IMG/VR virus record: IMGVR_UViG_2778261631_000002
Direction: 5' to 3' (one strand)
DNA from: a virus
Taxonomy: Duplodnaviria; Heunggongvirae; Uroviricota; Caudoviricetes
DNA length: 64,000 nt
The position numbers were made by a program, and so were the translations under genes. Each line of letters starts with the position of its first letter. Within the stretch, counting starts at the first letter, position 1. Positions 5,738 to 64,000 of this stretch are shown piece by piece. A model generated the notes under the pieces. It had not been told where the DNA came from, ran no database searches, and worked only from the letters and a program-made list of their open reading frames with translations.

Positions 5738-6599
5738 TCTATACAGGCATGTATAACAACAACGAGCCTATTAGCTGTCAACAACGTTATTTCCTCAAAT
5801 AAGAAAAAGCAGAAAAAAAATTGTTTAAGGTCACAAATTGTGGCCTTGATGGAGGAGGGAGGCTTATTGGCTATGGCTAAAAATCAAATTAGACACTTCA
5901 TGTTGCTGTAGCTCATCAAGATCCGAGGCCACAAAACCTTTTCCGAAAAACTTCACAAGTAACTCACTAGCCGCATCATTGTCACCTATTACACGAAAGT
6001 CATACGGCAACGTCGCAAGTTGACGATGTAATCCTGCTGAGAAAGTCGAATCTAACAGCGCCCAGAATTCCCACCGCAGGATAATACTCGCCTCTTAATA
6101 CTGTATATATGTTGTTACGATATGTTTTTCTGTCTCTAAAAAAAGATGTTAATAGAATGCTAACCATTGAAGGGGATAAAAATATACAATTCCAACAAAC
6201 GTTATTTTTAACAATTTTTTTCTTTGCGTTGACTTTCCCGGACACCTTGTCTGACCGAAGGTGCGCGAAAGCCACTTTTTCCTTCCTGAGTTATCCACAA
6301 AGTTATGCACTTGCAAGAGGGCCATTTTCTACATATTGTGGTGGCTAACAGATGAAATGAATGTAGATTAATTGAAGATAAGGAGAAAATTTGAGATGCA
6401 ATCATGACGTTAATAGATAGGGTCTGCATTACAGACCCCACCCGCATCAAGGAATTAGCCGTTCCCTGATGTTTTTCCGAAAACATGTGCCGTAAGCTCA
6501 CGTTAACGACTTTCATTCACCGAATCCAACTATATAGGGGTTGGGTTTCTACGTCAACGTGAGCAAGTGCACCTTTACATTTGACAAGGAACCACCTGA

Positions 6600-24609: not shown

Positions 24610-24685
24610 TGGTGGCCCCTACCGGACTTGAACCGGTGACCGTGCGATTATGAGTCGCCAGCTCTAACCACTGAGCTAAGGGGCC
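24610..24685 (-). tRNA. tRNA with anticodon CAU (Met, or Ile2 lysidine-type as P1 trnI)
   Basis: Cloverleaf GGCCCCT acceptor, GTGG D-loop, CUCAUAA anticodon loop, TTCAAGT T-loop, CCA end; 76 nt. Confidence 0.8.
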
Positions 24686-26325: not shown

Positions 26326-26401
26326 TGGTGCCGATTAACGGACTCGAACCGCTGACATCCTGCTTACAAGGCAGGCGCTCTACCAACTGAGCTAAACCGG
26401 C
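26326..26401 (-). tRNA. tRNA-Thr (anticodon UGU)
   Basis: 76-nt cloverleaf GCCGGTTTAGCTCAGTTGGTAGAGC...CUUGUAA loop...GGTTCGAGTCC...CCA. Confidence 0.85.
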
Positions 26402-26403
26402 AT

Positions 26404-26479
26404 TGGCGATGGTGGATGGATTTGAACCATCGACCCGTTGATTAACAGTCAACCGCTCTAACCGCTGAGCTACACCATC
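26404..26479 (-). tRNA. tRNA-Asn (anticodon GUU)
   Basis: 76-nt cloverleaf GATGGTG acceptor, CUGUUAA anticodon loop, GGTTCAAATCC T-arm; 2 nt from tRNA-Thr. Confidence 0.85.
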
Positions 26480-32485: not shown

Positions 32486-32878
32486 ATGTCTGATAAAGTA
32501 ACAGTAAAGCAAACTATCAACAAAGCGACTTCAATCTACAAAATTGAGCAAATCACTGTTGGCAAGCCAGGATCTGAACAATACCGTCGTGCTTTCGAGC
32601 TTGCCGATCAGCTTGGTTTAAAACACCCGGATTGCATTGAGCATGTATTTCCGACCTATGCTGATGAGCAATGTACTCATGTTCTTACCGAAGAGGATTT
32701 TTTCAGCACTGAAGAACGAGAAGGCGTTGATCGCTGTATTGGTGTGATTTGCTCTTCAGTGAGTTATGAGTTATTCCCTAATGTCCATGAAGATGGTGGT
32801 ATTGGATACCAATTCCTGTACGAAGGCGATGAGCTTAAATGTTATGAACATGGTCTTCTCATCGAAAGCATAGAATAA
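32486..32878 (+). CDS. Hypothetical protein (130 aa) upstream of the plasmid origin
   Basis: ORF with RBS; no recognisable motifs. Confidence 0.55.
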   Translation: MSDKVTVKQTINKATSIYKIEQITVGKPGSEQYRRAFELADQLGLKHPDCIEHVFPTYADEQCTHVLTEEDFFSTEEREGVDRCIGVICSSVSYELFPNVHEDGGIGYQFLYEGDELKCYEHGLLIESIE

Positions 32879-32892
32879 TACAGCTTCCTTCC

Positions 32893-32916
32893 AACCGGCT
32901 TTGTTGGCCGGTTTTT
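32893..32916 (+). terminator. Rho-independent terminator before oriR
   Basis: AACCGGC-TTTGTTG-GCCGGTT followed by TTT. Confidence 0.5.
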
Positions 32917-32919
32917 CAC

Positions 32920-33180
32920 TTATCCACATTATCCACTGGATAGATCCAATAATTAGGTCCATACAGATCCCAATTAGATCCATATAGATCCCTGATCGTT
33001 GCAGGCCGCGCCACGTCTGGCCTAGAAGTGTATCGCGATGTGTGCTGGAGGGAAAACGATGTGTGCTGGCGGGATAAAAATGTGTGCTGACGGGTTGCTA
33101 ATGTGTGCTGGCGGGATATAGGATGTGTGCTGACGGGAAAGCCTGGGTAGTTATCATCACTTATAAAAACTATCCACATA
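32920..33180. other. Plasmid origin oriR: tandem DnaA boxes, GATC-containing heptamer repeats, five 19-bp iterons (incC), distal DnaA box
   Basis: TTATCCACA / TTATCCACT at 32920-32937; five AGATCC-type GATC repeats at 32943-32997; iterons (G/A)ATGTGTGCTG(G/A)(A/C)GGG at 33038-33140. Confidence 0.8.
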
Positions 33181-33196
33181 ATTCGGAAAAAGTAAT

Positions 33197-34057
33197 ATGA
33201 ATCAATCATTTATCTCCGATATTCTTTACGCAGACATTGAAAGTAAGGCAAAAGAACTAACAGTTAATTCAAACAACACTGTGCAGCCTGTAGCGTTGAT
33301 GCGCTTGGGGGTATTCGTTCCGAAGCCATCAAAGAGCAAAGGAGAAAGTAAAGAGATTGATGCCACCAAAGCGTTTTCCCAGCTGGAGATAGCTAAAGCC
33401 GAGGGTTACGATGATATTAAAATCACCGGTCCTCGACTCGATATGGATACTGATTTCAAAACGTGGATCGGTGTCATCTACGCGTTCAGCAAATACGGCT
33501 TGTCTTCAAACACCATCCAGTTATCGTTTCAGGAGTTCGCTAAAGCCTGTGGTTTCCCCTCAAAACGTCTGGATGCGAAACTGCGTTTAACCATTCATGA
33601 ATCACTTGGACGCTTGCGTAACAAGGGTATCGCTTTTAAGCGCGGAAAAGATGCTAAAGGCGGCTATCAGACTGGTCTGCTGAAGGTCGGGCGTTTTGAT
33701 GCTGACCTTGATCTGATAGAGCTGGAGGCCGATTCGAAGCTCTGGGAGCTGTTCCAGCTTGATTATCGCGTTCTGTTGCAACACCACGCCTTGCGTGCCC
33801 TTCCGAAGAAAGAAGCTGCACAAGCCATTTACACTTTCATCGAAAGCCTTCCGCAGAACCCGTTGCCGCTATCGTTCGCGCGAATCCGTGAGCGCCTGGC
33901 TTTGCAGTCAGCTGTTGGCGAGCAAAACCGTATCATTAAGAAAGCGATAGAACAGCTTAAAACAATCGGCTATCTCGACTGTTCAATTGAGAAGAAAGGC
34001 CGGGAAAGTTTTGTAATCGTCCATTCTCGCAATCCAAAGCTGAAACTTCCCGAATAA
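33197..34057 (+). CDS. repA: RepA plasmid replication initiator (286 aa)
   Basis: Translation MNQSFISDILYADIESKAKELTVNSNN... is recognised as P1-type RepA; flanked by iteron arrays. Confidence 0.9.
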   Translation: MNQSFISDILYADIESKAKELTVNSNNTVQPVALMRLGVFVPKPSKSKGESKEIDATKAFSQLEIAKAEGYDDIKITGPRLDMDTDFKTWIGVIYAFSKYGLSSNTIQLSFQEFAKACGFPSKRLDAKLRLTIHESLGRLRNKGIAFKRGKDAKGGYQTGLLKVGRFDADLDLIELEADSKLWELFQLDYRVLLQHHALRALPKKEAAQAIYTFIESLPQNPLPLSFARIRERLALQSAVGEQNRIIKKAIEQLKTIGYLDCSIEKKGRESFVIVHSRNPKLKLPE

Positions 34058-34343
34058 GTGTGTGCTGGAGGGCAGCTGCATTTGAAAAATGTGCGCTGCC
34101 GGGAATGCCTGCCCATTTTCCTGTTTTTGGTGTGCGCTGGAGGGTTGCGCCACGCAGTTTGCCCAGACATTCCCTCCAGCACACATCTAACCATCCAAGT
34201 TTCCCTCCAGCGCACATCTAATCTTCTATCTTTCCCTTCAGCGCACATATTTGATACCAGCGATCCCTCCACAACACATAATTCAATGCGACTTCCCTCT
34301 ATCGCACATTCTGGTCCTGCATCATCCCTCCAGCACACATCTA
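34058..34343. repeat. incA copy-control locus: nine 19-bp iterons (three direct, six inverted)
   Basis: GTGTGCTGGAGGG-type repeats at about 34058, 34088, 34129, and CCCTCCAGCACACAT-type at 34170, 34201, 34232, 34263, 34292, 34325. Confidence 0.8.
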
Positions 34344-34450
34344 ATAGCCTCATCGCCATTTCTTTACGTGCAATAATTTGCGCACGAATCAAAATAAGTT
34401 GCACGTAGCAGAATCAAACGTACAATTCACTCATACGAAATGATAAGGAG

Positions 34451-35662
34451 ATGATGATGAAACGCGATTACGGCGGTGTCGGCACCATAGCTCTTCGTGC
34501 AAGCGCATTACTTAAGGCCATGAGTCAGGATATTGAAGATCAGCGCAAAGAGTTCAATCAGACCGAGTATTATCAGACGTTCACTCGTAACGCTGTGGCA
34601 AAGTTGCCGAAGCTGAGCCGCCGCATTGTGGAGCAGGCCATCAAAGAGATGGAAGATGATGGGTACCAGTTCAACAAGAAACAGGTCGGTAACGTTGAAC
34701 AGTACGCGCTGACCATCCAGAACGTCATTGATATCTATGCCCACCGTAAGATCCCAAAATATCGCGACATTCACAAATCGCCTTACGTTATTTTTGTCGT
34801 AAACCTGAAGGGTGGCGTATCCAAAACGGTTTCCACAGTCACGTTGGCGCACGCTCTGCGTGTGCATCAGGATTTACTGCGTCACGATCTGCGCATTCTG
34901 GTAATTGACCTTGACCCTCAGGCATCCAGCACAATGTTCCTCGACCATACTCACAGTATTGGTTCCATCCTGGAAACCGCCGCGCAGGCGATGCTGAACG
35001 ACCTGGACGCGGAGACGCTACGCAAAGAGGTGATTCGTCCGACCATCGTTCCTGGCGTAGACGTGATTCCAGCCTCTATCGACGATGGCTTTGTTGCCAG
35101 CCAATGGAAAGAGCTGGTTGAAGAGCATCTTCCCGGACAAAATCAGTACGAAATCCTTCGACGCAATATCATTGATCGTGTTGCGGATGATTATGACTTT
35201 ATCTTTATTGATACCGGTCCACACCTGGATCCGTTCCTGCTCAACGGTCTGGCGGCCAGCGATTTGCTGCTTACCCCTACCCCACCAGCCCAGGTTGACT
35301 TCCACTCAACACTGAAATATCTCACCCGTCTGCCAGAAATGCTGGAGCAACTGGAGGAGGAAGGCGTAGAACCGCGTTTAAGCGCCAGCATTGGTTTTAT
35401 GTCGAAGATGACCGGCAAGCGCGATCACGAGACATCACACAGCCTTGCGCGTGAGGTTTACGCCAGCAACATTCTGGACTCTTCTCTGCCTCGTCTGGAT
35501 GGATTTGAGCGATGCGGCGAGTCTTTCGACACCGTAATCAGTGCCAACCCGCAATCGTATCCAGGCAGTGCAGAGGCGCTGAAGAAGGCACGAACCGAGG
35601 CCGAGCGTTTCACTAAGGCTGTGTTTGATCGAATTGAGTTTGTTAGGGGTGAGGCGGCATGA
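34451..35662 (+). CDS. parA: ParA partition ATPase, P1/P7/pMT1 family but clearly diverged from P1 ParA
   Basis: Deviant Walker A NLKGGVSKT, ...ILVIDLDPQ...; alignable along its length to P1 ParA with many substitutions. Confidence 0.85.
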   Translation: MMMKRDYGGVGTIALRASALLKAMSQDIEDQRKEFNQTEYYQTFTRNAVAKLPKLSRRIVEQAIKEMEDDGYQFNKKQVGNVEQYALTIQNVIDIYAHRKIPKYRDIHKSPYVIFVVNLKGGVSKTVSTVTLAHALRVHQDLLRHDLRILVIDLDPQASSTMFLDHTHSIGSILETAAQAMLNDLDAETLRKEVIRPTIVPGVDVIPASIDDGFVASQWKELVEEHLPGQNQYEILRRNIIDRVADDYDFIFIDTGPHLDPFLLNGLAASDLLLTPTPPAQVDFHSTLKYLTRLPEMLEQLEEEGVEPRLSASIGFMSKMTGKRDHETSHSLAREVYASNILDSSLPRLDGFERCGESFDTVISANPQSYPGSAEALKKARTEAERFTKAVFDRIEFVRGEAA

Positions 35663-36624
35663 AAAAAATAGTTTCCCGTGGACGAGTGCTGGGCAAGAAT
35701 AGCTCCGAGTTTGCTCGCATGCTTGAAGGCAGTGAAGGCACCAAAACCTTTACCCTAAAATCTGGCCGCCAGGCTAAATTTTTGCTTACCGTTGTGCTGA
35801 GTGGTGAGATTGAGTCGCGCACGTTCGTTGACCCGGCAGTTAACGGCCGCGATCAGTCTCTGCTCACCCCTGAGTCGGTAAGCGATATTTCCCGCACCAT
35901 TAAATTGCAACAGTTCTTCCCGGCTATCGGTCGTATGGTTGGGGAGCGCATTGAGGTATTGGACGGATCACGTCGCCGCGCTGCGTGTATCTTCAATGAA
36001 ACGAAATTTGAGATTCTGGTGACGAAAGATGAGATCAGCCTGGCGGATGCACGCCAGCTGGCCATTGATATCCAGACAGCCCGCGAACACACCCTGCGCG
36101 AACTGGGTAAACGCTTCGAGGTTATGTATGGTAAGAGCATGACCAAAGAAGAGATCGCCCGCGCTGAGAACATTTCAAAGGCTAAAGTTACGCGCGCGTT
36201 CCAGGCGGCAGCGGTGCCGGATGAGATGATTGCTGTCTTCCCTGTTGCCAGCGATCTCGCCCTGCCAGATTACCAGTTACTGCTCCAGATCTCCGAGGAT
36301 GCCAACGCTAAAAGCGTGCCTATTGAAGAGCTGGTTGATACGGTGCGCGAACGAATTGCAGAGACTGAGGGCGCGAAAGAGGATAAAGCGAAGATACTGG
36401 CTATCTTCAAAGCGGAAAGCAAAAGCCTGAAGCCCGCGCCGGTTAAATCTGTGGTGGTTGAGAAGCTGCGAGACTTCTCTGACCGTCGCCAATATGCTCG
36501 AAAGAAGTCCGATCCGAAAAAACGGGTTGTCGCCTACGAGTTCTCCAGACTCCCGTCTGAAGTGCAAACTGAAATTGACGAAGCAATAAAAAAAATCATT
36601 GGGAAAATGTCTGCTGGGGAATAA
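35659..36624 (+). CDS. parB: ParB centromere-binding protein (321 aa), diverged from P1 ParB
   Basis: ParB box ...ILDGSRRRAA... and HTH region; start overlaps the parA stop. Confidence 0.8.
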   Translation: MKKIVSRGRVLGKNSSEFARMLEGSEGTKTFTLKSGRQAKFLLTVVLSGEIESRTFVDPAVNGRDQSLLTPESVSDISRTIKLQQFFPAIGRMVGERIEVLDGSRRRAACIFNETKFEILVTKDEISLADARQLAIDIQTAREHTLRELGKRFEVMYGKSMTKEEIARAENISKAKVTRAFQAAAVPDEMIAVFPVASDLALPDYQLLLQISEDANAKSVPIEELVDTVRERIAETEGAKEDKAKILAIFKAESKSLKPAPVKSVVVEKLRDFSDRRQYARKKSDPKKRVVAYEFSRLPSEVQTEIDEAIKKIIGKMSAGE

Positions 36625-36677
36625 TCCCGCTGGTGGGAGGTGGTGTTAGCCCCTCCCCTTCCTAAAATGTCCCGCAC

Positions 36678-36748
36678 CAATTTCATTGCTAACATTATGA
36701 TTTGCATGTGTTTTTTAGGAGAATTTCAGACTGAAATTCCCACGATTT
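36678..36748. other. parS centromere candidate: ParB box A heptamers around an AT-rich IHF-like core, with a variant box B
   Basis: ATTTCAT ... ATTTCAG-AC-TGAAAT-TCCCAC-GATTTAAC; same layout as P1 parS, but box B reads TCCCAC rather than the TCGCCA I recall for P1. Confidence 0.55.
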
Positions 36749-36812
36749 AACGCCTGCATTCACCGTCCACTTCCCCGCACAAAAAATTTAAAAAATTACT
36801 TTTCGCGAGAAA

Positions 36813-36837
36813 GTCAACAAGTGACTTTCAATAAAAT
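36813..36837 (+). promoter_or_regulatory. Candidate Lpa-dependent late promoter of the head/sheath operon (GTCAACAAGTGACT then TAAAAT)
   Basis: Motif shared with sites at 17109 and 49289. Confidence 0.4.
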
Positions 36838-36867
36838 CTCTTCCGAAAAGGGATTCACACAAGTGCC

Positions 36868-38595
36868 TTGTGTTTAAGGAAGAGTAACTTGAGTAACTTA
36901 CGCGAATACCAGAATCGTATTGCAGATATCGCAAAACGCTCTAAAGCCGTTCTTGGCTGGGCAAGTACAGCACAGTTCGGTACTGATAACCAATTCATCA
37001 AAGATGATGCCGCGCGTGCCGCATCTATCCTTGAAGCTGCACGTAAAGACCCAATTTTTGCGGGTATCTCTGATAATGCCACCGCTCAAATTGCTACCGC
37101 GTGGGCAAGTGCACTGGCTGACTACGCCGCAGCACATAAATCTATGCCGCGTCCGGAAATTCTGGCCTCCTGCCACCAGACGCTGGAAAACTGCCTGATT
37201 GAGTCCACCCGCAATAGCATGGATGCCACTAATAAAGCGATGCTGGAATCCGTCGCAGCAGAGATGATGAGCGTTTCTGACGGTGTTATGCGTCTGCCTT
37301 TATTCCTCGCGATGATCCTGCCTGTTCAGTTGGGGGCAGCTACCGCTGATGCGTGTACCTTCATTCCGGTTACGCGTGACCAGTCCGACATCTATGAAGT
37401 CTTTAACGTGGCAGGTTCCTCTTTTGGTTCTTATGCTGCTGGTGATGTTCTGGACATGCAATCCGTCGGTGTGTACAGCCAGTTACGCCGCCGCTATGTG
37501 CTGGTGGCAAGCTCCGATGGCACCAGCAAAACCGCAACCTTCAAGATGGAAGACTTCGAAGGCCAGAATGTACCAATCCGAAAAGGTCGCACTAACATCT
37601 ACGTTAACCGTATTAAGTCTGTTGTTGATAACGGTTCCGGCAGCCTACTTCACTCGTTTACTAATGCTGCTGGTGAGCAAATCACTGTTACCTGCTCTCT
37701 GAACTACAACATTGGTCAGATTGCCCTGTCGTTCTCCAAAGCGCCGGATAAAGGCACTGAGATCGCAATTGAGACGGAAATCAATATTGAAGCCGCTCCT
37801 GAGCTGATCCCGCTGATCAACCACGAAATGAAGAAATACACCCTGTTCCCAAGCCAGTTCGTTATCGCGGCTGAGCACACGGTACAGGCGGCGTATGAAG
37901 CACAGCGTGAATTTGGTCTGGACCTGGGTTCCCTACAGTTCCGCACCCTGAAGGAATACCTGTCTCATGAACAGGATATGCTGCGTCTTCGCATCATGAT
38001 CTGGCGTACTCTTGCGACCGACACCTTTGACATCGCTCTGCCGGTTAACCAGTCCTTTGATGTATGGGCAACCATCATTCGTGGCAAATTCCAGACTGTA
38101 TATCGCGACATTATTGAGCGCGTTAAATCTTCTGGTGCGATGGGGATGTTTGCTGGTGCTGATGCAGCATCTTTCTTCAAACAGTTGCCGAAGGATTTCT
38201 TCCAGCCAGCCGAAGACTATATCCAGACTCCGTATGTTCACTACATCGGTACCCTGTTCGGTAACGTGAAAGTGTACGAAGTACCTGCTGGTATTTGTAA
38301 GAACTTAACGACAGAGAACATTCAGTTCAGCTCGATGGATGTGCTGTGCTACGTCCGTGATGAAAATCCGGGTAAAGCAGGCTTCGTGACTGGTGATGCT
38401 GTCCCGGCTATCCCGTTCCAGCATCCGACCACTCCGGCGCTGGTCAACCGTACCACACTGTGGGGTTCGGCTATCAACGATATGCACCCACGCAACGGCG
38501 CTGATTACTTCACTCGTGTAACGCTGACAATGGCCAAAAAAGGCGGGCTTAACTTCATAAGCGGCGACACGATTGATGCCGGTGACTCTGAGTAA
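36868..38595 (+). CDS. Major head (capsid) protein, P1 gene 23 equivalent (true start possibly TTG at 36889)
   Basis: About 570-aa ORF after parS, as gene 23 is in P1; RBS AAGGAAGAG precedes the TTG at 36889. Confidence 0.65.
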   Translation: MCLRKSNLSNLREYQNRIADIAKRSKAVLGWASTAQFGTDNQFIKDDAARAASILEAARKDPIFAGISDNATAQIATAWASALADYAAAHKSMPRPEILASCHQTLENCLIESTRNSMDATNKAMLESVAAEMMSVSDGVMRLPLFLAMILPVQLGAATADACTFIPVTRDQSDIYEVFNVAGSSFGSYAAGDVLDMQSVGVYSQLRRRYVLVASSDGTSKTATFKMEDFEGQNVPIRKGRTNIYVNRIKSVVDNGSGSLLHSFTNAAGEQITVTCSLNYNIGQIALSFSKAPDKGTEIAIETEINIEAAPELIPLINHEMKKYTLFPSQFVIAAEHTVQAAYEAQREFGLDLGSLQFRTLKEYLSHEQDMLRLRIMIWRTLATDTFDIALPVNQSFDVWATIIRGKFQTVYRDIIERVKSSGAMGMFAGADAASFFKQLPKDFFQPAEDYIQTPYVHYIGTLFGNVKVYEVPAGICKNLTTENIQFSSMDVLCYVRDENPGKAGFVTGDAVPAIPFQHPTTPALVNRTTLWGSAINDMHPRNGADYFTRVTLTMAKKGGLNFISGDTIDAGDSE

Positions 38596-42259: not shown

Positions 42260-42505
42260 GATACAACCGCATTCCACCGCCTAGCGAATAGAGTAAAATA
42301 ACATCTTGTAAATACTCTGGTATGAAGTGAGTGTAAACTAACAGTTACCTATTAATAAATACTCCTATACTTTTCTACCTTAAATATTTAGTATGCACAT
42401 GGTTAAATTTATGTAGCGTCAAAGTTTGTGAAGGCAAGATGTCCGTTAATCTTTGTCGAAGCATATATGGTTCTAGGAAGTATTGGCTTATTTAAGAGGA
42501 ATGTC

Positions 42506-43498
42506 ATGTTACGTATCAATGATATGAGCAATATTATTGTAGGTATTTACAGCAAAAAAAATGAAGAAAAATCATTTGAGTATATGTACTCTTATCTGAC
42601 AAGGAAAACAGCTTATTTAACACGTGAGTTTATTCGTGATGGTAATCAGGATAAAGAATTATTAAAAAATACCTATATAGAAGCATTGTCTTGGCTTTTT
42701 GCAATCTGTGATAAACTTGAAATACAACCACAGGAAGCATTTTATAAAAAATTTCCTAGTTGCTGTCCTTATTGCTTAGGGGCGCCTTGTTCCTGTTCTC
42801 AAACACACAGAAAGCCAGAGAAAATAAGAAGCGCAAAAGGAATTAAAGATGAGCTTTTCAATAAATATAACGCTATTAAACCTATGCAATTTCCGCCTTA
42901 TGCGCCACGAATGATTAATGACATCTATCCGTCGAATAGAACCATTTGGTCTACTTTTGGTGGGTTTTATCATTCATCCAGGTTATTCGAAGAGTTGGGT
43001 GAGTTGCAAGAGGCTTATGCTAAATCAATTGAAGATAAAAATTACAACAAAGAAAATCTTCATGAAGAGTGTGCTGATATATATGCTTGGTTGTTTTCTT
43101 TATGGGGGATTATTTTTAAAGATGATGATCTTGGCGAGGCGTTTGAAAGTTATTATCTAAATGGTTGTCCTGTCTGCAATAAAAGAGAATGTGTTTGTGT
43201 CAGTTATTCAGGGAAGATTAGTAAAACTGATGAGAAAAGAGCATCATTGGAAAAACTTAAACAAGAGTTAGAACTTCTCTTGAAGGATGAGACGACAGGT
43301 GAGTTTAAGGAGAATTTAGAGTCTGCTATATCTGCAATTAAAGATGCGATAGACTCAGGAAAAGATGCAGATAGCAGAAGAACTTTATCGGAAGTCGAAA
43401 GTGTTCTTGACTCAATCGAAAAAAATTCAGCCAAGATGTCTAGTGTGGCAAGTAACGCCCTTAATGTTTTTAATGTAATCAGTAAGTTATTCCAATAA
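42506..43498 (+). CDS. MazG-like NTP-pyrophosphohydrolase-fold protein with two Cys clusters and C-terminal coiled coil (330 aa from ATG 42506; alternative ATG at 42467)
   Basis: FEELGELQEAYAKS...HEECADIYAWLFSLWG matches the EExxE / EExxD helices of MazG/HisE-type all-alpha NTP-PPases; CCPYCLGAPCSC and CPVCNKRECVC clusters; strongly AT-rich codon usage unlike its neighbours. Confidence 0.6.
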   Translation: MLRINDMSNIIVGIYSKKNEEKSFEYMYSYLTRKTAYLTREFIRDGNQDKELLKNTYIEALSWLFAICDKLEIQPQEAFYKKFPSCCPYCLGAPCSCSQTHRKPEKIRSAKGIKDELFNKYNAIKPMQFPPYAPRMINDIYPSNRTIWSTFGGFYHSSRLFEELGELQEAYAKSIEDKNYNKENLHEECADIYAWLFSLWGIIFKDDDLGEAFESYYLNGCPVCNKRECVCVSYSGKISKTDEKRASLEKLKQELELLLKDETTGEFKENLESAISAIKDAIDSGKDADSRRTLSEVESVLDSIEKNSAKMSSVASNALNVFNVISKLFQ

Positions 43499-58078: not shown

Positions 58079-61000
58079 ATGAATGACGTTACAGTTGTTA
58101 CATCGGTTACTTACCCATCATCCGAGTCGTTGGCTCTGGTGGCCGATGTGCAATACCACGAACCATATCTGTCAGCCGCGCTAAACCGAAAATTCAGGGG
58201 GATTGTTGACCCGGGATTTTATGCCGGTTTCTTACCTAAGCCAGGCGGTGGGATGAACCTGTTAATTACCTCAGTGGATGGTGATAAAACCGCAGGCGCG
58301 GCGTCGGTGGATATTGGTGAATTTTACCAGGTAACTATTCAGCAACGTAAGGATATTTCTCTTGCACTTAGTGCAGGCAAGAAATATGCAATTGTGCTGA
58401 AGGGAAGATACCTCCTTGGAGAAGATACCTACCAGGTGAATACCGCGTCACATATTCATGCGGCTGAATTTGTTGCCAGAACCTATACCGATTCATATCA
58501 GTTAGGAGATGGGGAGCTGCTTGTTTGTACGGTGAATATCCCTGCTAGTGTATCTGCCATTACCCAGGAGATGATTGATACATCCGAGCGTATCAACCGC
58601 TCGATCGGCATTGATATTTCAGACTCTGTAACCAGTACCAGAAGTGATGTTGCTGCAAGTTCGCTGGCAGTTAAAAAAGCCTACGATCTGGCGAAAAGCA
58701 AGTATACGGCACAGGATGCAAGCACAACGCAAAAGGGATTAGTTCAGCTCAGTAGCGCAACTAACAGCGACAGCGAAACAATGGCGGCTACCCCTAAAGC
58801 TGTTAAGTCTATAAAAGATCTGGCTGATACCAAAGCGCCAATAGAAAGCCCGAGTCTGACAGGAACGCCAACCGCGCCGACGGCAGCGCAAGGTACAAAT
58901 AGCACGCAGATCGCAAATACAGCCTTTGTTAAGGCAGCTATAACGGCACTTATCAACGGTGCACCTGGCACACTGGATACGCTTAAAGAAATAGCTGCTG
59001 CGATCAATAACGACCCGAATTTCAGCACAACTATCAACAATGCTCTGGCTCTTAAAGCTCCTTTAGCAAGTCCTGCATTAACGGGAATACCTACTGCGCC
59101 TACCGCTGCACAGGGTACGAATAACACGCAGATTGCTACGACCGCTTATGTAAGAGCTGCCATATCCGCATTGGTTGGTTCATCACCAGAAGCTCTTGAT
59201 ACCCTGAATGAGCTTGCCGCAGCACTTGGCAATGACCCGAACTTTGCGACAACAATGACAAATGCGCTGGCAGGCAAACAGCCTCTGGATGCAACTTTAA
59301 CCGCTCTCGCTGCCCTTGCGACTGGTGCAAACAAACTGCCTTATTTCACTGGTAAGGATACGGTAGCTCAGACTGATTTAACGTCAGTCGGTCGCGATAT
59401 TCTGGCTAAAACAAGCACACTGGCCGTTATCCAATACCTTGGTTTAAGAGAACTCGGTACCAGCGGTGAAAAGATCCCCCTGTTGAGCACGGCTAACACA
59501 TGGAGTGCGCGCCAGACTTTCAACGGCGGGATCACCGGGGCGCTGACAGGGAACGCCGACACCGCGACGAAATTAAAAACAGCCATAAACATTAATGGCG
59601 TCAGGTTCGATGGTTCGGCTGACATTACGTTGACTCCTAAAGATCTGGACGTTTACAGCAAAAGCGAAATAGACAATAAAAAAGGGATGCGAAAATACAC
59701 TTTTTCAGCGCCTGCAAATGCAGTAAGCGGTAAGTGGTATCCTATAGTCTTTCGCCGATCTGGAGGCAGTACCGATGAATTAGCCTCACGAGTTGTGATA
59801 ACTACTTATTCCTCAGCTGGCGGATACGCCATGAATAATTGTGAATTTAATGGGTTTGTTATGCCTGGCGGTTGGTCTGATCGCGGTTCATATGCGGCTG
59901 GTTTTTTCTCAATATATTCTACTGCTGAGCGAGCTATACACTCGATTATTTCAAGTGTGAAAGATGACGATTTGTGTAGTGTATTTTACGTTGAAGCCAG
60001 AGCATTTCCTATCAAGATATTTGCTGAGGAGGGCTTGAACGTAATTGTTCCAACTACTGACTATACCGTTGGTCAAGCCACCTATAAGTGGGGGGCCACA
60101 GATCCAGTAGCAGAAAGTACAAATACTCAAACCATTCTGGATTTTAAAAATGGACGTGGTTATTACTGCTCACATCAGTTTGTTTCAAGCCTTTCAGGAA
60201 ATGCAGCAACAGCAACGAAATTAGCAAGTTCAATAAACATAGGTGGTGTATCCTTTGATGGTTCAGCCGATATAGATTTGCCTGGTGTGAATACAAAAGG
60301 TAATCAAGACACTACCGGTAATGCAGCGACAGCGACCAAGTTGCAGACAGCATGTACTATCAACGGCGTCTCGTTTGATGGTTCTAAAGATATTGAACTT
60401 AACCCACGGTCTATAGGCACGATCAACTCCACAACAATGTCTTTTAGTGGTGGTGCTGGATGGTTCAAGCTGGCAACTGTAACCATGCCACAGGCCAGTT
60501 CCGTGGTTTACATAAGCCTGATTGGTGGTGCAGGGTATAACGTTGGCTCCCCGCATCAAGCAGGCATCTCTGAGCTGGTTCTGCGTGCCGGAAATGGAAA
60601 TCCAAAGGGTATTACTGGTGCATTATGGCGACGGACCTCGATTGGATTTACTAATTTTGCATGGGAGAATACATCTGGTGATACCTATGATGTTTATGTT
60701 GAAATAGGTAATTACGCCACAGGTGTTAATATTCAGTGGGATTATACCAGTAACGCCAGCGTAACGATTCATACATCACCAATTTATACAGAGAATAAAC
60801 CAACAGGCCTGACAGATGGAACTGTATATGTAATTTACAGTTCGCACATTAAACCGACTGCTGCTGATGTTGGGGCGTTGTCATTATCTGGTGGTCAATT
60901 GAATGGTGCACTGGGTATCGGAACATCCAGTGCTCTTGGCGGTAACTCGATTGTTTTGGGTGATAATGACACGGGCTTTAAACAAAATGGCGACGGTAAT

Positions 61001-61336
61001 CTGGACGTTTATGCTAATAACGTCCATGTTATGCGCTTTGTCTCCGGCAGCATTCAAAGTAATAAAACCATAAATATTACAGGGCGTGTTAACCCCTCGG
61101 ATTACGGTAACTTTGATTCTCGTTATGTAAGAGACATGCGACTTGGTGGAGCATCTACATATAAACCAGCAAATAACACCTCGACATGGACGCATCAGGC
61201 ACCATCAGGCTGCGTTTATACTGGCATTATAGTCCAGGATACCGGCTCGAATTCTGCCGATAATATTGGAGGTGTATATTACAGGCCGGTTCAGAAACAG
61301 ATTAATGGAACATGGTATAACGTGGCACAGGTTTAA
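58079..61336 (+). CDS. S: Tail fibre S: constant part (to about 59440) fused to the currently expressed variable part Sv
   Basis: About 1085-aa ORF with repeated GNA(D/A)TATKL...NINGV(R/S)FDGS(A/K)DI units; the cix site lies inside the gene. Confidence 0.8.
59428..59453. promoter_or_regulatory. cixL crossover site for Cin/Gin/Hin-family invertase
   Basis: TTATCCAATACC-TT-GGTTTAAGAGAA, 12-bp dyad half-sites resembling the gix/cix/hix consensus. Confidence 0.6.
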
Positions 61337-61340
61337 ATTT

Positions 61341-61868
61341 ATGCAGCATTTGATCAATATAACAGCGGGTAATCCAAAAACAGTTGAGCAATACCAGCTG
61401 ACGAAACATTTTGATGTCATCTGGTTTTTTACAGAAGACGGTAAAAACTGGTATGAGGAACAAAAGAACTTCCAGGATGGCACGATAAAATTAGCGTATG
61501 ACAAAGATAACATCATCCGCTATGTGGAAAAGGATGTAACAGCTATCAGACCGGATGGATTAAGTGTTGTTGAAGTGCCGGATATTACTGCTAACCGACG
61601 TGCCGACATTTCTGGTAACTGGATGTTTAAGGATGGCGCAGTTATTAAACGTATTTATACGGCAGAGGAATTACAGCAGCAGGTAGAAAATCAGAAAGCC
61701 AGACTTCTTGCTGATGCTGAATCAGTCATTCAACTACTAGAGCGTGCAGTAAGGCTGAATATGGCAACGGATGAGGACCACAGCCGACTGGAAGCATGGG
61801 AACGCTACAGCGTTCTTGTAAGCCGCGTGGATACGGCAAAGCCAGAATGGCCACAAAAACCTGAGTAA
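61341..61868 (+). CDS. U: Tail fibre assembly chaperone U (175 aa)
   Basis: Tfa-family pattern [15 protein letters not shown]; paralog of U'. Confidence 0.75.
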
Positions 61869-61895
61869 AAATAAGGCCCGATAACGGGCCTTTTC

Positions 61896-62429
61896 TCATT
61901 CTGGTTGTTCGGGAAACGTTACTGGCAGGATGGAGGTATCTGTAGATTCTACTTTCTGCGCATATAGCATCCACGCGGTTAATTTCTGTTTATTCTCATC
62001 GGAAATGATGCCCAGCCGTAGCTGTGAGTCCCACAGTTGGGTTTTATCCCTGACAAGTTGCAATAGGCTTTGCTTTTCATTTTCAGCTTGTTGCCTCTGT
62101 TCTTCCTCGGTATAAGTTCGCTTTATCACTACGCCATCTTTGAACATCCATTTACCAGAAATGTCAGCACGGCGATTTGCAGTAATGTCAGCAACCTCAA
62201 CCACACTTAAACCTTCTGGATTTATTGTAGATACGTCTTTATTTATAGCCACAATAACTCCATCTGATGTGTAAGCAATTTTTATAGTGTCATCCTGGAA
62301 GTTCTTTTGTTCCTCATACCAGTTTTTACCGTCTTCAGAATACAACCAGACAACACCAAATTGTCGCGTCAATTCATATTGTTCAACAGTTTTTGGATTA
62401 CCTGATCTGATGTTTTTTAAATGCTGCAT
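61896..62429 (-). CDS. Alternative tail fibre assembly chaperone U' (177 aa)
   Basis: Paralog of U on the opposite strand inside the invertible segment. Confidence 0.75.
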
Positions 62430-62431
62430 AA

Positions 62432-63946
62432 TTAAATACTTCCCGCGTTATACCATGTACCATTGATACAATACTGCACCGGCCTTGCCTGAGTTGTATC
62501 AATAAGTTCGTCCTTATTTGAGTTAATTGAGGCAGTAACAACATAACCAGATTTATCGTTCCATCCAGGACCATTCCATGTTTGCACAGACGATTTTGTA
62601 CCTAATCGAATACCTGTAATAAATCGTGAATTACATTCTGCTTTGGTATATGCCCCAACATCTCCCGCAGATGGTTTACGTGTTGTAGTATAAAATTCCG
62701 ACCAGTCGGCTTCAAAACCATAACCGTCACGCGCAGAACGATAATAAATACCGCCGTTCTTATAATTCACGCGGAACTGAACAGCCGGACAACTACCAGC
62801 TCCCATATAAAAATGGAGAATCAACGTAGATGCTCCACCAATATTAGCGTTATAAACCCCGCTAATCGAGTTCCATCCAACAGCTTTGTCATTTCCAACT
62901 GTGCTTCCTGTCTGCCCTAAAGCAAATGCAGGTTGCTGGTTTTTTGTGCTGTAGTCGCGCCGCCAGCCTGGGGCGTAATCTGCACCATGGTTTATATAAG
63001 TAAATTGCGCATTAGTGGTGCCACCTCCGGTGGAAGTGCTTGGTGTTGTTACACGGATGGTCATGGCACCTTTATTACCCATAACCTCAATAACGCAACC
63101 GGCAAGATGAATAGTTCCACAGCCAGTATCGGTTATAATTTTATTATTGCCGTACGACCATGAACATTTGCACATCCAGTATGGGTGATTGAATGCCCCT
63201 TGAGAATCCAGCCATTCAATCAATTGTGCCGTTGTCCAGTTCCCTGCACCTGTACTAATAGAACTGTGAAAAGCGCGACATGCACCAATATTTTTAGTGA
63301 AGGTATCTTTTCCAGGAATATCCGCGCCATTCTGGTTTTTCTGCAATGATCCAGCGGCTAGTTCTACGGTTTGCTCAAGATTTAAATTTTCAGCCGTTAG
63401 CTCAATATTTTTAGAACCATCAAACGAAACACCGTTAATAGTGCGCGCCGTCTGCAATCTGGTCGCCGTAGCAGCATTGCCGGAGGTATCCTGATCCCCT
63501 TTGGCATTGACGCCGGGAATTGAATCTTTTGACGTATAGACCTGCGCCCATTCAGACCAGTTGGCAGAATCAGTATCTCGCCGCGAACGGATATGTACGG
63601 GCGCATGGGCACCGCTCGTGCCACTCCAGCCAATGAATAACTCACCTTCGCCAGCAGCGGTGGCACCTTTAAGGTGAAGCACATTGCCATAGGGGGAAGG
63701 GTAGCCATTGTTGTATGCCTCATACAGCTGAATCCCAGATGTTCCCTGTGCATTCGCCTCCAAGGCCGTTACGCGACCGCGCGATACCAGAGTATTGATA
63801 TTAATGTCAGCCGAACCATCGAACCTGACGCCATTAATGTTTCTGGCTGTTTTCAATTTCGTTGCGGTATCGGCGTTCCCTGTCAGCGCCCCGGTGATCC
63901 CGCCGTTGAAAGTCTGGCGCGCACTCCATGTGTTAGCCGTGCTCAA
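62432..63946 (-). CDS. Alternative tail-fibre variable part Sv' (expressed only after inversion, fused to the constant part of S)
   Basis: N-terminal [46 protein letters not shown] shared with S inside the inverted repeat; C-terminal INGTWYN motif shared with Sv. Confidence 0.7.
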
Positions 63947-64000
63947 CAGGGGGATCTTTTCACCGCTGGTACCGAGTTCTCTTAAACCAAGGTATTGGAT

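Follow-up and report, generated by a model that had tools for sequence, protein, structure and literature searches.

The par locus of bacteriophage P1 (NC_005856) consists of an autoregulated parA-parB pair followed by parS, in which the elements are arranged in the order B1-A1-IHF-A2-A3-B2-A4 with a spacer of 36 nt between A1 and A2. In the P1 record the equivalent positions read TCGCCA, ATTTCAC, IHF, ATTTCAA, GTGAAAT, TCGCCA and ATTTCAC. P7 (AF503408 / X17529), another member of the P1par family, has seven annotated sites in AF503408: boxB(1) GTCCCG, boxA(1) ATTTCAT, IHF, boxA(2) ATTTCAG, boxA(3) CTGAAAT, boxB(2) TTCCCA and boxA(4) GTTTCAC. The par locus of the Yersinia pestis plasmid pMT1, an IncFIB plasmid and not a P1-like phage, is alike in family and architecture, and its parS, as read from NZ_CP009934, carries TCACCA in both arms. 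The box B discriminator of P7 is a classical one that has been studied since about 1990. Box B and an aspartate of P1 ParB both have a role in specificity, this residue (D288) being key for reading box B2 (PMC10999674), and in the P7 par promoter the ParA footprint falls on a perfect ACGTGC inverted repeat with a separation of 29 bp (PMC8465637). The box definitions used here are taken from the GenBank records of P7 and P1 and from the secondary summary in PMC10999674; a literature search for TCGCCA together with parS returned nothing relevant.

We analyzed a 64,000-nt stretch of phage DNA, referred to here as the window, in which a partition module with an altered box B, diverged from that of P1, had been proposed from the letters of the sequence. 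Judged by its sequence, this module is almost certainly the partition cassette of P7, which belongs to the P1par family of type Ia ParABS systems and has P7 specificity, carried by a P7-like phage-plasmid beside its IncY (P1/P7) replicon. The system is already known and ordinary, and its exact par allele is one already described, in the plasmid pTZ20_1P (Venturini 2019).

Replicon context and layout of the cassette

The features of the locus, including the adjoining replicon, are as follows.

33039-33137, + strand: incC iterons, 5 copies, oriR, upstream of repA (context, outside par)
33197-34057, + strand: repA, plasmid replication initiator of the IncY replicon
34058-34345, both orientations: incA array of 9 RepA iterons (3 forward, 6 reverse), with 9 pattern matches at 34059-34339
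34365-34407: par promoter/operator region, inverted repeat TACGTGCAA / TTGCACGTA, with two ACGTGC motifs at a separation of 29 bp, the motif bound by ParA in P7
34451-35662, + strand: parA, 403 aa, Walker-type partition ATPase of type Ia, whose N-terminal HTH serves autoregulation
35659-36624, + strand: parB, 321 aa, centromere-binding protein with an HTH for box A and a C-terminal dimer domain for box B
36669-36751: parS, whole site, just downstream of parB

The parA and parB genes overlap and lie downstream of repA and its two iteron arrays, and heptamers resembling box A occur in the non-coding stretch downstream of parB. RepA, which has a Pfam match to Rep3_N, is identical at 286 of 286 residues to the RepA of P1 and to that of P7. 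The iteron pattern TGTGYGCTGSMGGG matched 18 times in the window, compared with 2.5 matches expected by chance, and 5 of these are forward matches within incC. The segment that holds the incC iterons (32486-33196) matches P7 at 99.9% identity, both the P7 and P1 records annotate equivalent iterons, and the layout of incA is that of the annotated incA of P7 and P1. RepA and the iteron arrays had been described as P1-type in the original prediction, and this description holds, with the arrays in the layout common to P1 and P7. The incA array is 89.9% identical to that of P7 and 85.1% identical to that of P1, and most of the changes are found in iterons one to five, with their spacers.

Colinearity with P7 extends over the whole window, at 97-99.8% identity (AF503408 from 99063 down to ~36644, in reverse orientation), and the flanking genes are 97-99% identical to P1. 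In P7, as here, the cassette lies between incA and gene 23. A comparison of positions 34058-36867, in which the stretch beyond parS was followed up to ~20 nt short of gene 23, gave 99 differences from P7 in total: 29 in incA, 4 in the operator spacer, 4 in parAB, 6 in the gap between parB and parS, 24 in parS and 32 after parS.

The arms of the operator repeat occupy 34365-34373 and 34399-34407. The spacer between incA and parA is 105 nt long, and the only 4 positions at which it differs from P7 leave both arms untouched. By analogy with P7, ParA would repress its own operon through this ACGTGC inverted repeat upstream of parA. The position of the par promoter is set by homology to P7 only; a sigma-70 consensus scan of 34300-36900 found no promoter, and terminator-like matches were at chance level.

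ParA, ParB and the parS boxes

When positions 34400-36800 were compared with phage genomes by megablast, P7 was matched over the full length at 98.3% identity (X17529, AF503408), and the reference P1 genome (NC_005856 / AF234172) was not matched. ParA is identical to P7 ParA at 403 of 403 residues and ParB to P7 ParB at 321 of 321. The two genes together differ from those of P7 at 4 of 2,174 nt, 3 in parA and 1 in parB (965/966 nt identical), and every one of these changes is synonymous. A P1/P7 hybrid module was considered and rejected on the basis of these 4 differences in 2,174 nt and the lack of a megablast match to reference P1 in the par region.

The domain content of both proteins is that of the P1par family. 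In ParA, Pfam identified HTH_54, the 'ParA helix turn helix', at residues 18-107 (E 3.8e-37), as well as an AAA_31/CbiA Walker ATPase domain; in ParB, it identified the P1-type PF08775 ParB domain at 194-314 (E 6.4e-33) together with a weak match to SopB_HTH, so that ParB has, besides an HTH, a C-terminal dimer/DNA-binding domain of the P1 ParB type. The solved structure of P7 ParA (3EZ9/3EZF) aligns over residues 1-403, with 4 differences that are all conservative, and ParA also matches the crystal structures of P1 ParA. For ParB, the nearest structures are the solved complexes of P1 ParB(142-333) with DNA (1ZX4/2NTZ), which match over residues 137-316. The ParB position aligned with D288 of P1 ParB is R277, both here and in P7.

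The boxes of parS, read in the same order as in P1 and P7, are listed below.

36669-36674, + strand: box B1, GTCCCG, identical to the annotated P7 boxB(1)
36680-36686, + strand: box A1, ATTTCAT, identical to the annotated P7 boxA(1)
36690-36702, - strand: IHF site in the parS core, AATCATAATGTTA, 1 mismatch to the consensus WATCAANNNNTTR
36723-36729, + strand: box A2, ATTTCAG, identical to the annotated P7 boxA(2)
36731-36737, + strand: box A3, CTGAAAT, an inverted box A, identical to the annotated P7 boxA(3)
36737-36742, + strand: box B2, TTCCCA, the specificity-determining hexamer, identical to the annotated P7 boxB(2)
36745-36751, + strand: box A4, ATTTAAC (GTTTCAC in P7, ATTTCAC in P1)

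Box A4 is the sole box that differs from P7. The strand, position and mismatch count of the IHF site are those of the annotated P7 site, and the spacer between A1 and A2 is 36 nt here, in P7 and in P1, as the other parS spacings also agree with both phages. The 36-nt core has an A+T content of 69%, compared with 83% in P7, and matches the IHF consensus. Loss of the IHF site in the diverged core was entertained and rejected, the consensus match and the spacing both being kept.

The original prediction was correct that parS retains box A heptamers (ATTTCAT, ATTTCAG, CTGAAAT and ATTTAAC) and an AT-rich core, and its box B, TCCCAC, does differ from the TCGCCA of P1. The register of that hexamer, however, was off by one base: TCCCAC (36738-36743) is the P7 box B2, TTCCCA, shifted by one position. 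The content of the module it delimited (34451-36750) was also right, but its end drops the last base of box A4 at 36751. The left box B, GTCCCG at 36669-36674, had not been mentioned. The supposedly altered hexamer is the classical discriminator of P7, and a false lead is thereby removed.

In the model that the P1 and P7 literature suggests for this site, ParB dimers would contact parS in two ways, the HTH binding the box A heptamers and the C-terminal dimer domain the box B hexamers. Bending of the A+T-rich core by IHF would allow the left (B1-A1) and right (A2-A3-B2) arms to be wrapped in one complex. The ParB-parS complex would then stimulate nucleoid-bound ParA-ATP, and sister plasmids would be moved apart. 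Because ParB, both box B hexamers and boxes A1 to A3 are those of P7, P7 specificity is expected. The expected partition incompatibility is likewise that of P7, which predicts incompatibility with P7 parS and compatibility with the parS sites of P1 and pMT1.

Natural variation of the parS allele

The parS site differs from that of P7 at 24 of 83 bases. Twenty-one of these changes affect bases that separate the boxes or degenerate positions within the IHF site; of the remainder, one alters the first IHF-site base, which still falls within the consensus, and two are in box A4. Despite specificity of the P7 type, an allele with a diverged IHF core (69% versus 83% A+T) and an A4 of ATTTAAC could differ from P7 in degree, through altered ParB affinity, altered IHF dependence, or a changed strength of incompatibility with P7-type plasmids. 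Two observations would fit such an effect. First, the 24 changes in parS accompany a parB gene that matches P7 at 965 of 966 nt. Second, the rankings of parS and parB similarity are discordant among plasmids; CP033095, for example, has ~26 nt differences from the window in parB and only 5 in parS. Against this, the elements that do not vary among natural variants (B1, A1, the IHF consensus bases, A2, A3, B2 and the 36-nt spacing) are all kept.

The distribution of the module among sequenced plasmids also bears on this question. PLSDB contains 237 plasmids with the module, 91 of them at 99% identity or more, and it is present in 212 of 5,426 complete E. coli genomes. With a 136-nt query extending from the parB stop to parS, 36 plasmids matched at 99% or more, 71 at 95-99%, 25 at 90-95%, 47 at 80-90% and 56 at 60-80%. 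These identity bands indicate that the parS allele of the window is one among several common alleles, and its commonness, with 36 PLSDB plasmids at 99% or more over the 136-nt query and a further 71 at 95-99%, argues for full function.

We compared the site with 12 other P7-type loci, namely P7, OP279344 and ten plasmids. The A2-A3-B2 segment (TTTCAGNCTGAAATTCCCAC) is invariant in all 12, and B1 and A1 are conserved in 9, the exceptions being CP056621 (B1 GCCCCG), the Salmonella plasmid CP077703 (A1 ATTTCAC) and the IncHI plasmid OR724977, which has a degenerate left arm. Inter-box bases of parS, in contrast, differ at up to 24 of 83 positions among the 12 loci, and box A4 occurs in natural P7-type plasmids as GTTTCAC, ATTTCAC, ATTTAAC, GTTTAAC or TTTTCAC. 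Box A4 is reportedly dispensable for ParB binding in P1, and its natural variability fits this. Such dispensability also weakens the case for an effect of the A4 change seen here. Since the positions at which parS departs from P7 vary freely among natural P7-type plasmids, the changes are most likely neutral, and we regard a quantitative difference from P7 as improbable. A by-product of the comparison is a map of natural variation in P7 parS, with A2-A3-B2 fixed, B1-A1 nearly fixed, and the inter-box bases and A4 variable. This map is in line with the functional dissection published for P1 parS.

The discordance between parB and parS points to recombination between the two, to relaxed constraint on the spacers, or to both. 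A more specific proposal, that the parS allele (diverged IHF core and A4 ATTTAAC) and the diverged incA together form a selected variant in which cross-incompatibility with reference P7-type plasmids, at the level of partition or of replication, is weakened, strikes us as very improbable. If it were true, selection-driven turnover of cis-acting incompatibility sites would underlie the discordance, in place of neutral drift and recombination. Any residual novelty is confined to a low-probability quantitative effect of the parS and incA alleles on incompatibility.

Over 2,401 nt, the par module is 100.0% identical (rounded) in ten listed PLSDB plasmids, among them pTZ20_1P (NZ_MN510447). This plasmid and ~90 other P1/P7-like IncY phage-plasmids, from E. 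coli, Salmonella, E. fergusonii and Cronobacter, share the par sequence at 99% identity or more over the same length and have no notable difference in the module. In pTZ20_1P, parAB was reported as '99.8% P7 (minimal similarity to P1)', and lower identity was reported for the flanking incompatibility regions, 91.6% for the region 5' of parA and 81% for that 3' of parB (Venturini 2019).

Comparison with P1 and pMT1 specificity

ParA and ParB were said in the original prediction to be substantially unlike their P1 counterparts, and this is the case: global amino acid identity is 57.8% for ParA and 42.1% for ParB. Compared with P1, the locus also has an unrelated operator and a shorter spacer between incA and parA, an arginine (R277) at the position of D288, and GTCCCG and TTCCCA in place of TCGCCA. 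These features are not those of P1 specificity, and partition specificity should therefore differ from that of P1. The module of pMT1 is nearer to that of the window than P1 is, with identities of 89.8% for ParA and 67.3% for ParB. The pMT1 specificity does not apply here either, as box B is not TCACCA and the residue aligned with R277 is N278 in pMT1.

The departure from P1 in box B (TTCCCA versus TCGCCA) and in ParB (42.1%) could be read as matching changes in box B and ParB that gave the P1/P7/pMT1 family a new specificity type. This is scarcely credible. ParB matches its P7 counterpart at 100% identity, the two box B hexamers are the annotated P7 boxes, the residue aligned with the discriminator is as in P7, and pMT1 is distinct as well (box B TCACCA, ParB 67.3%). 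In the proposal of a distinct specificity type, the difference from P1 stands and the novelty does not, since ParB and both hexamers are those of P7. It had been allowed at the outset that ParB and box B might instead match a known type exactly, and P7 is that type. Alignment with P1, P7 and pMT1, suggested as a check, gave a full match to P7 for ParA, ParB, B1, A1 to A3 and B2.

The features that the locus shares with P7 are thus ParA, ParB and RepA, boxes B1, A1, A2, A3 and B2, the position of the IHF site, the spacings and the operator repeat. Those that bear on specificity are a P7 ParB sequence with R277, box B hexamers GTCCCG and TTCCCA, and an ACGTGC operator with 29-bp spacing. The departures from P7 amount to the 4 synonymous changes in parAB, the 24 of 83 bases in parS and an incA at 89.9% identity.

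That the module is simply P1 par, the P1 sequence having been misremembered when the original prediction was made, can be dismissed in spite of a RepA 100% identical to that of P1 and flanks at 97-99%, given the lack of a megablast match of the par region to NC_005856 / AF234172, the values of 57.8% and 42.1% for ParA and ParB, and the TCGCCA box B of P1. The combination of a P1-like replicon with a different par module, noted in the original prediction, is not unusual. P7 itself has this layout: its RepA is identical to that of P1 and stands next to a par module that is not of the P1 type. For annotation, the window would be assigned to a P7-like IncY phage-plasmid, which is expected to show the partition incompatibility of P7 and not that of P1.

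Divergence of parS spacers and incA iterons beside conserved genes

We set parS of the window (36669-36751) against twelve loci of the P7 type (L001, L002 and L004-L013, comprising P7, OP279344 and ten plasmids). Among these P7-type plasmids, variation in the bases between the parS boxes reaches 24 of 83 positions, whereas parAB is nearly identical. Rankings by parB similarity and by parS similarity disagree. P7 and the window are identical at 965 of 966 nt of parB, yet differ 24 times in parS; CP033095 shows approximately 26 differences from the window in parB and 5 in parS. This discordance suggests recombination between parB and parS, or else rapid turnover of the spacer.

The incA iteron array (34058-34345) is only 89.9% identical to that of P7 and 85.1% identical to that of P1, although repA (99%) and oriR/incC (99.9% to P7) are conserved. 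Part of the changes in incA fall inside iterons, as in the replacement of TGTGTGCTG by TGTGCGCTG.

P7-type partition sequences in other records

ParA and ParB of OP279344.1 (L002) are 100% and 99.4% identical, respectively, to those of P7. This record is titled 'Escherichia phage P1 isolate del res del mod', and its parA, parB and parS are of the P7 type rather than the P1 type; par type therefore cannot be read from record names. The crystallised 'P7 ParA' (PDB 3EZ9/3EZF) differs from the product of window 34451-35659 by four conservative substitutions, E61D, D69E, D183N and K220R, and the same four positions separate it from the GenBank P7 ParA.

In CP056621.1 (L007), the second base of box B1 in the left arm of parS is changed (GCCCCG versus GTCCCG), box B2 (TTCCCA) is unchanged, and the C-terminus of ParB differs too (…IEKMSAGK). 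This plasmid could serve as a natural test of whether box B1 matters for specificity. A P7-type parB/parS relic is present in NZ_OR724977.1 (L013), a conjugative 291-kb IncHI plasmid, in a stretch without annotated genes. Its parB is approximately 92% identical at the nucleotide level, and its parS has a degenerate left arm with an indel and an intact right arm.

A variable segment adjoining repL, and other differences from P7

Segment 42242-44471 has no P7 counterpart and stands in place of the rapA/rapB/upf52.1 site, adjoining repL. Two ORFs are assigned to it:

42428-43498, + strand, 356-aa ORF within the segment
44190-44516, - strand, small membrane-like ORF

Searches of Pfam and PADLOC with the 356-aa ORF gave no match. 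Since its position is a known variable hot-spot in P1-like plasmids, the segment could carry an accessory or defence gene.

IS903, present in P7, is absent from the window, which has a clean junction near 6000 (about 5992-6000). The tail-fibre variable region (59630-64000) has diverged from P7 (78% identity or no match), and the tRNA region is rearranged, with tRNA-Met, tRNA-Thr and tRNA-Asn (24610-24685 and 26326-26479).
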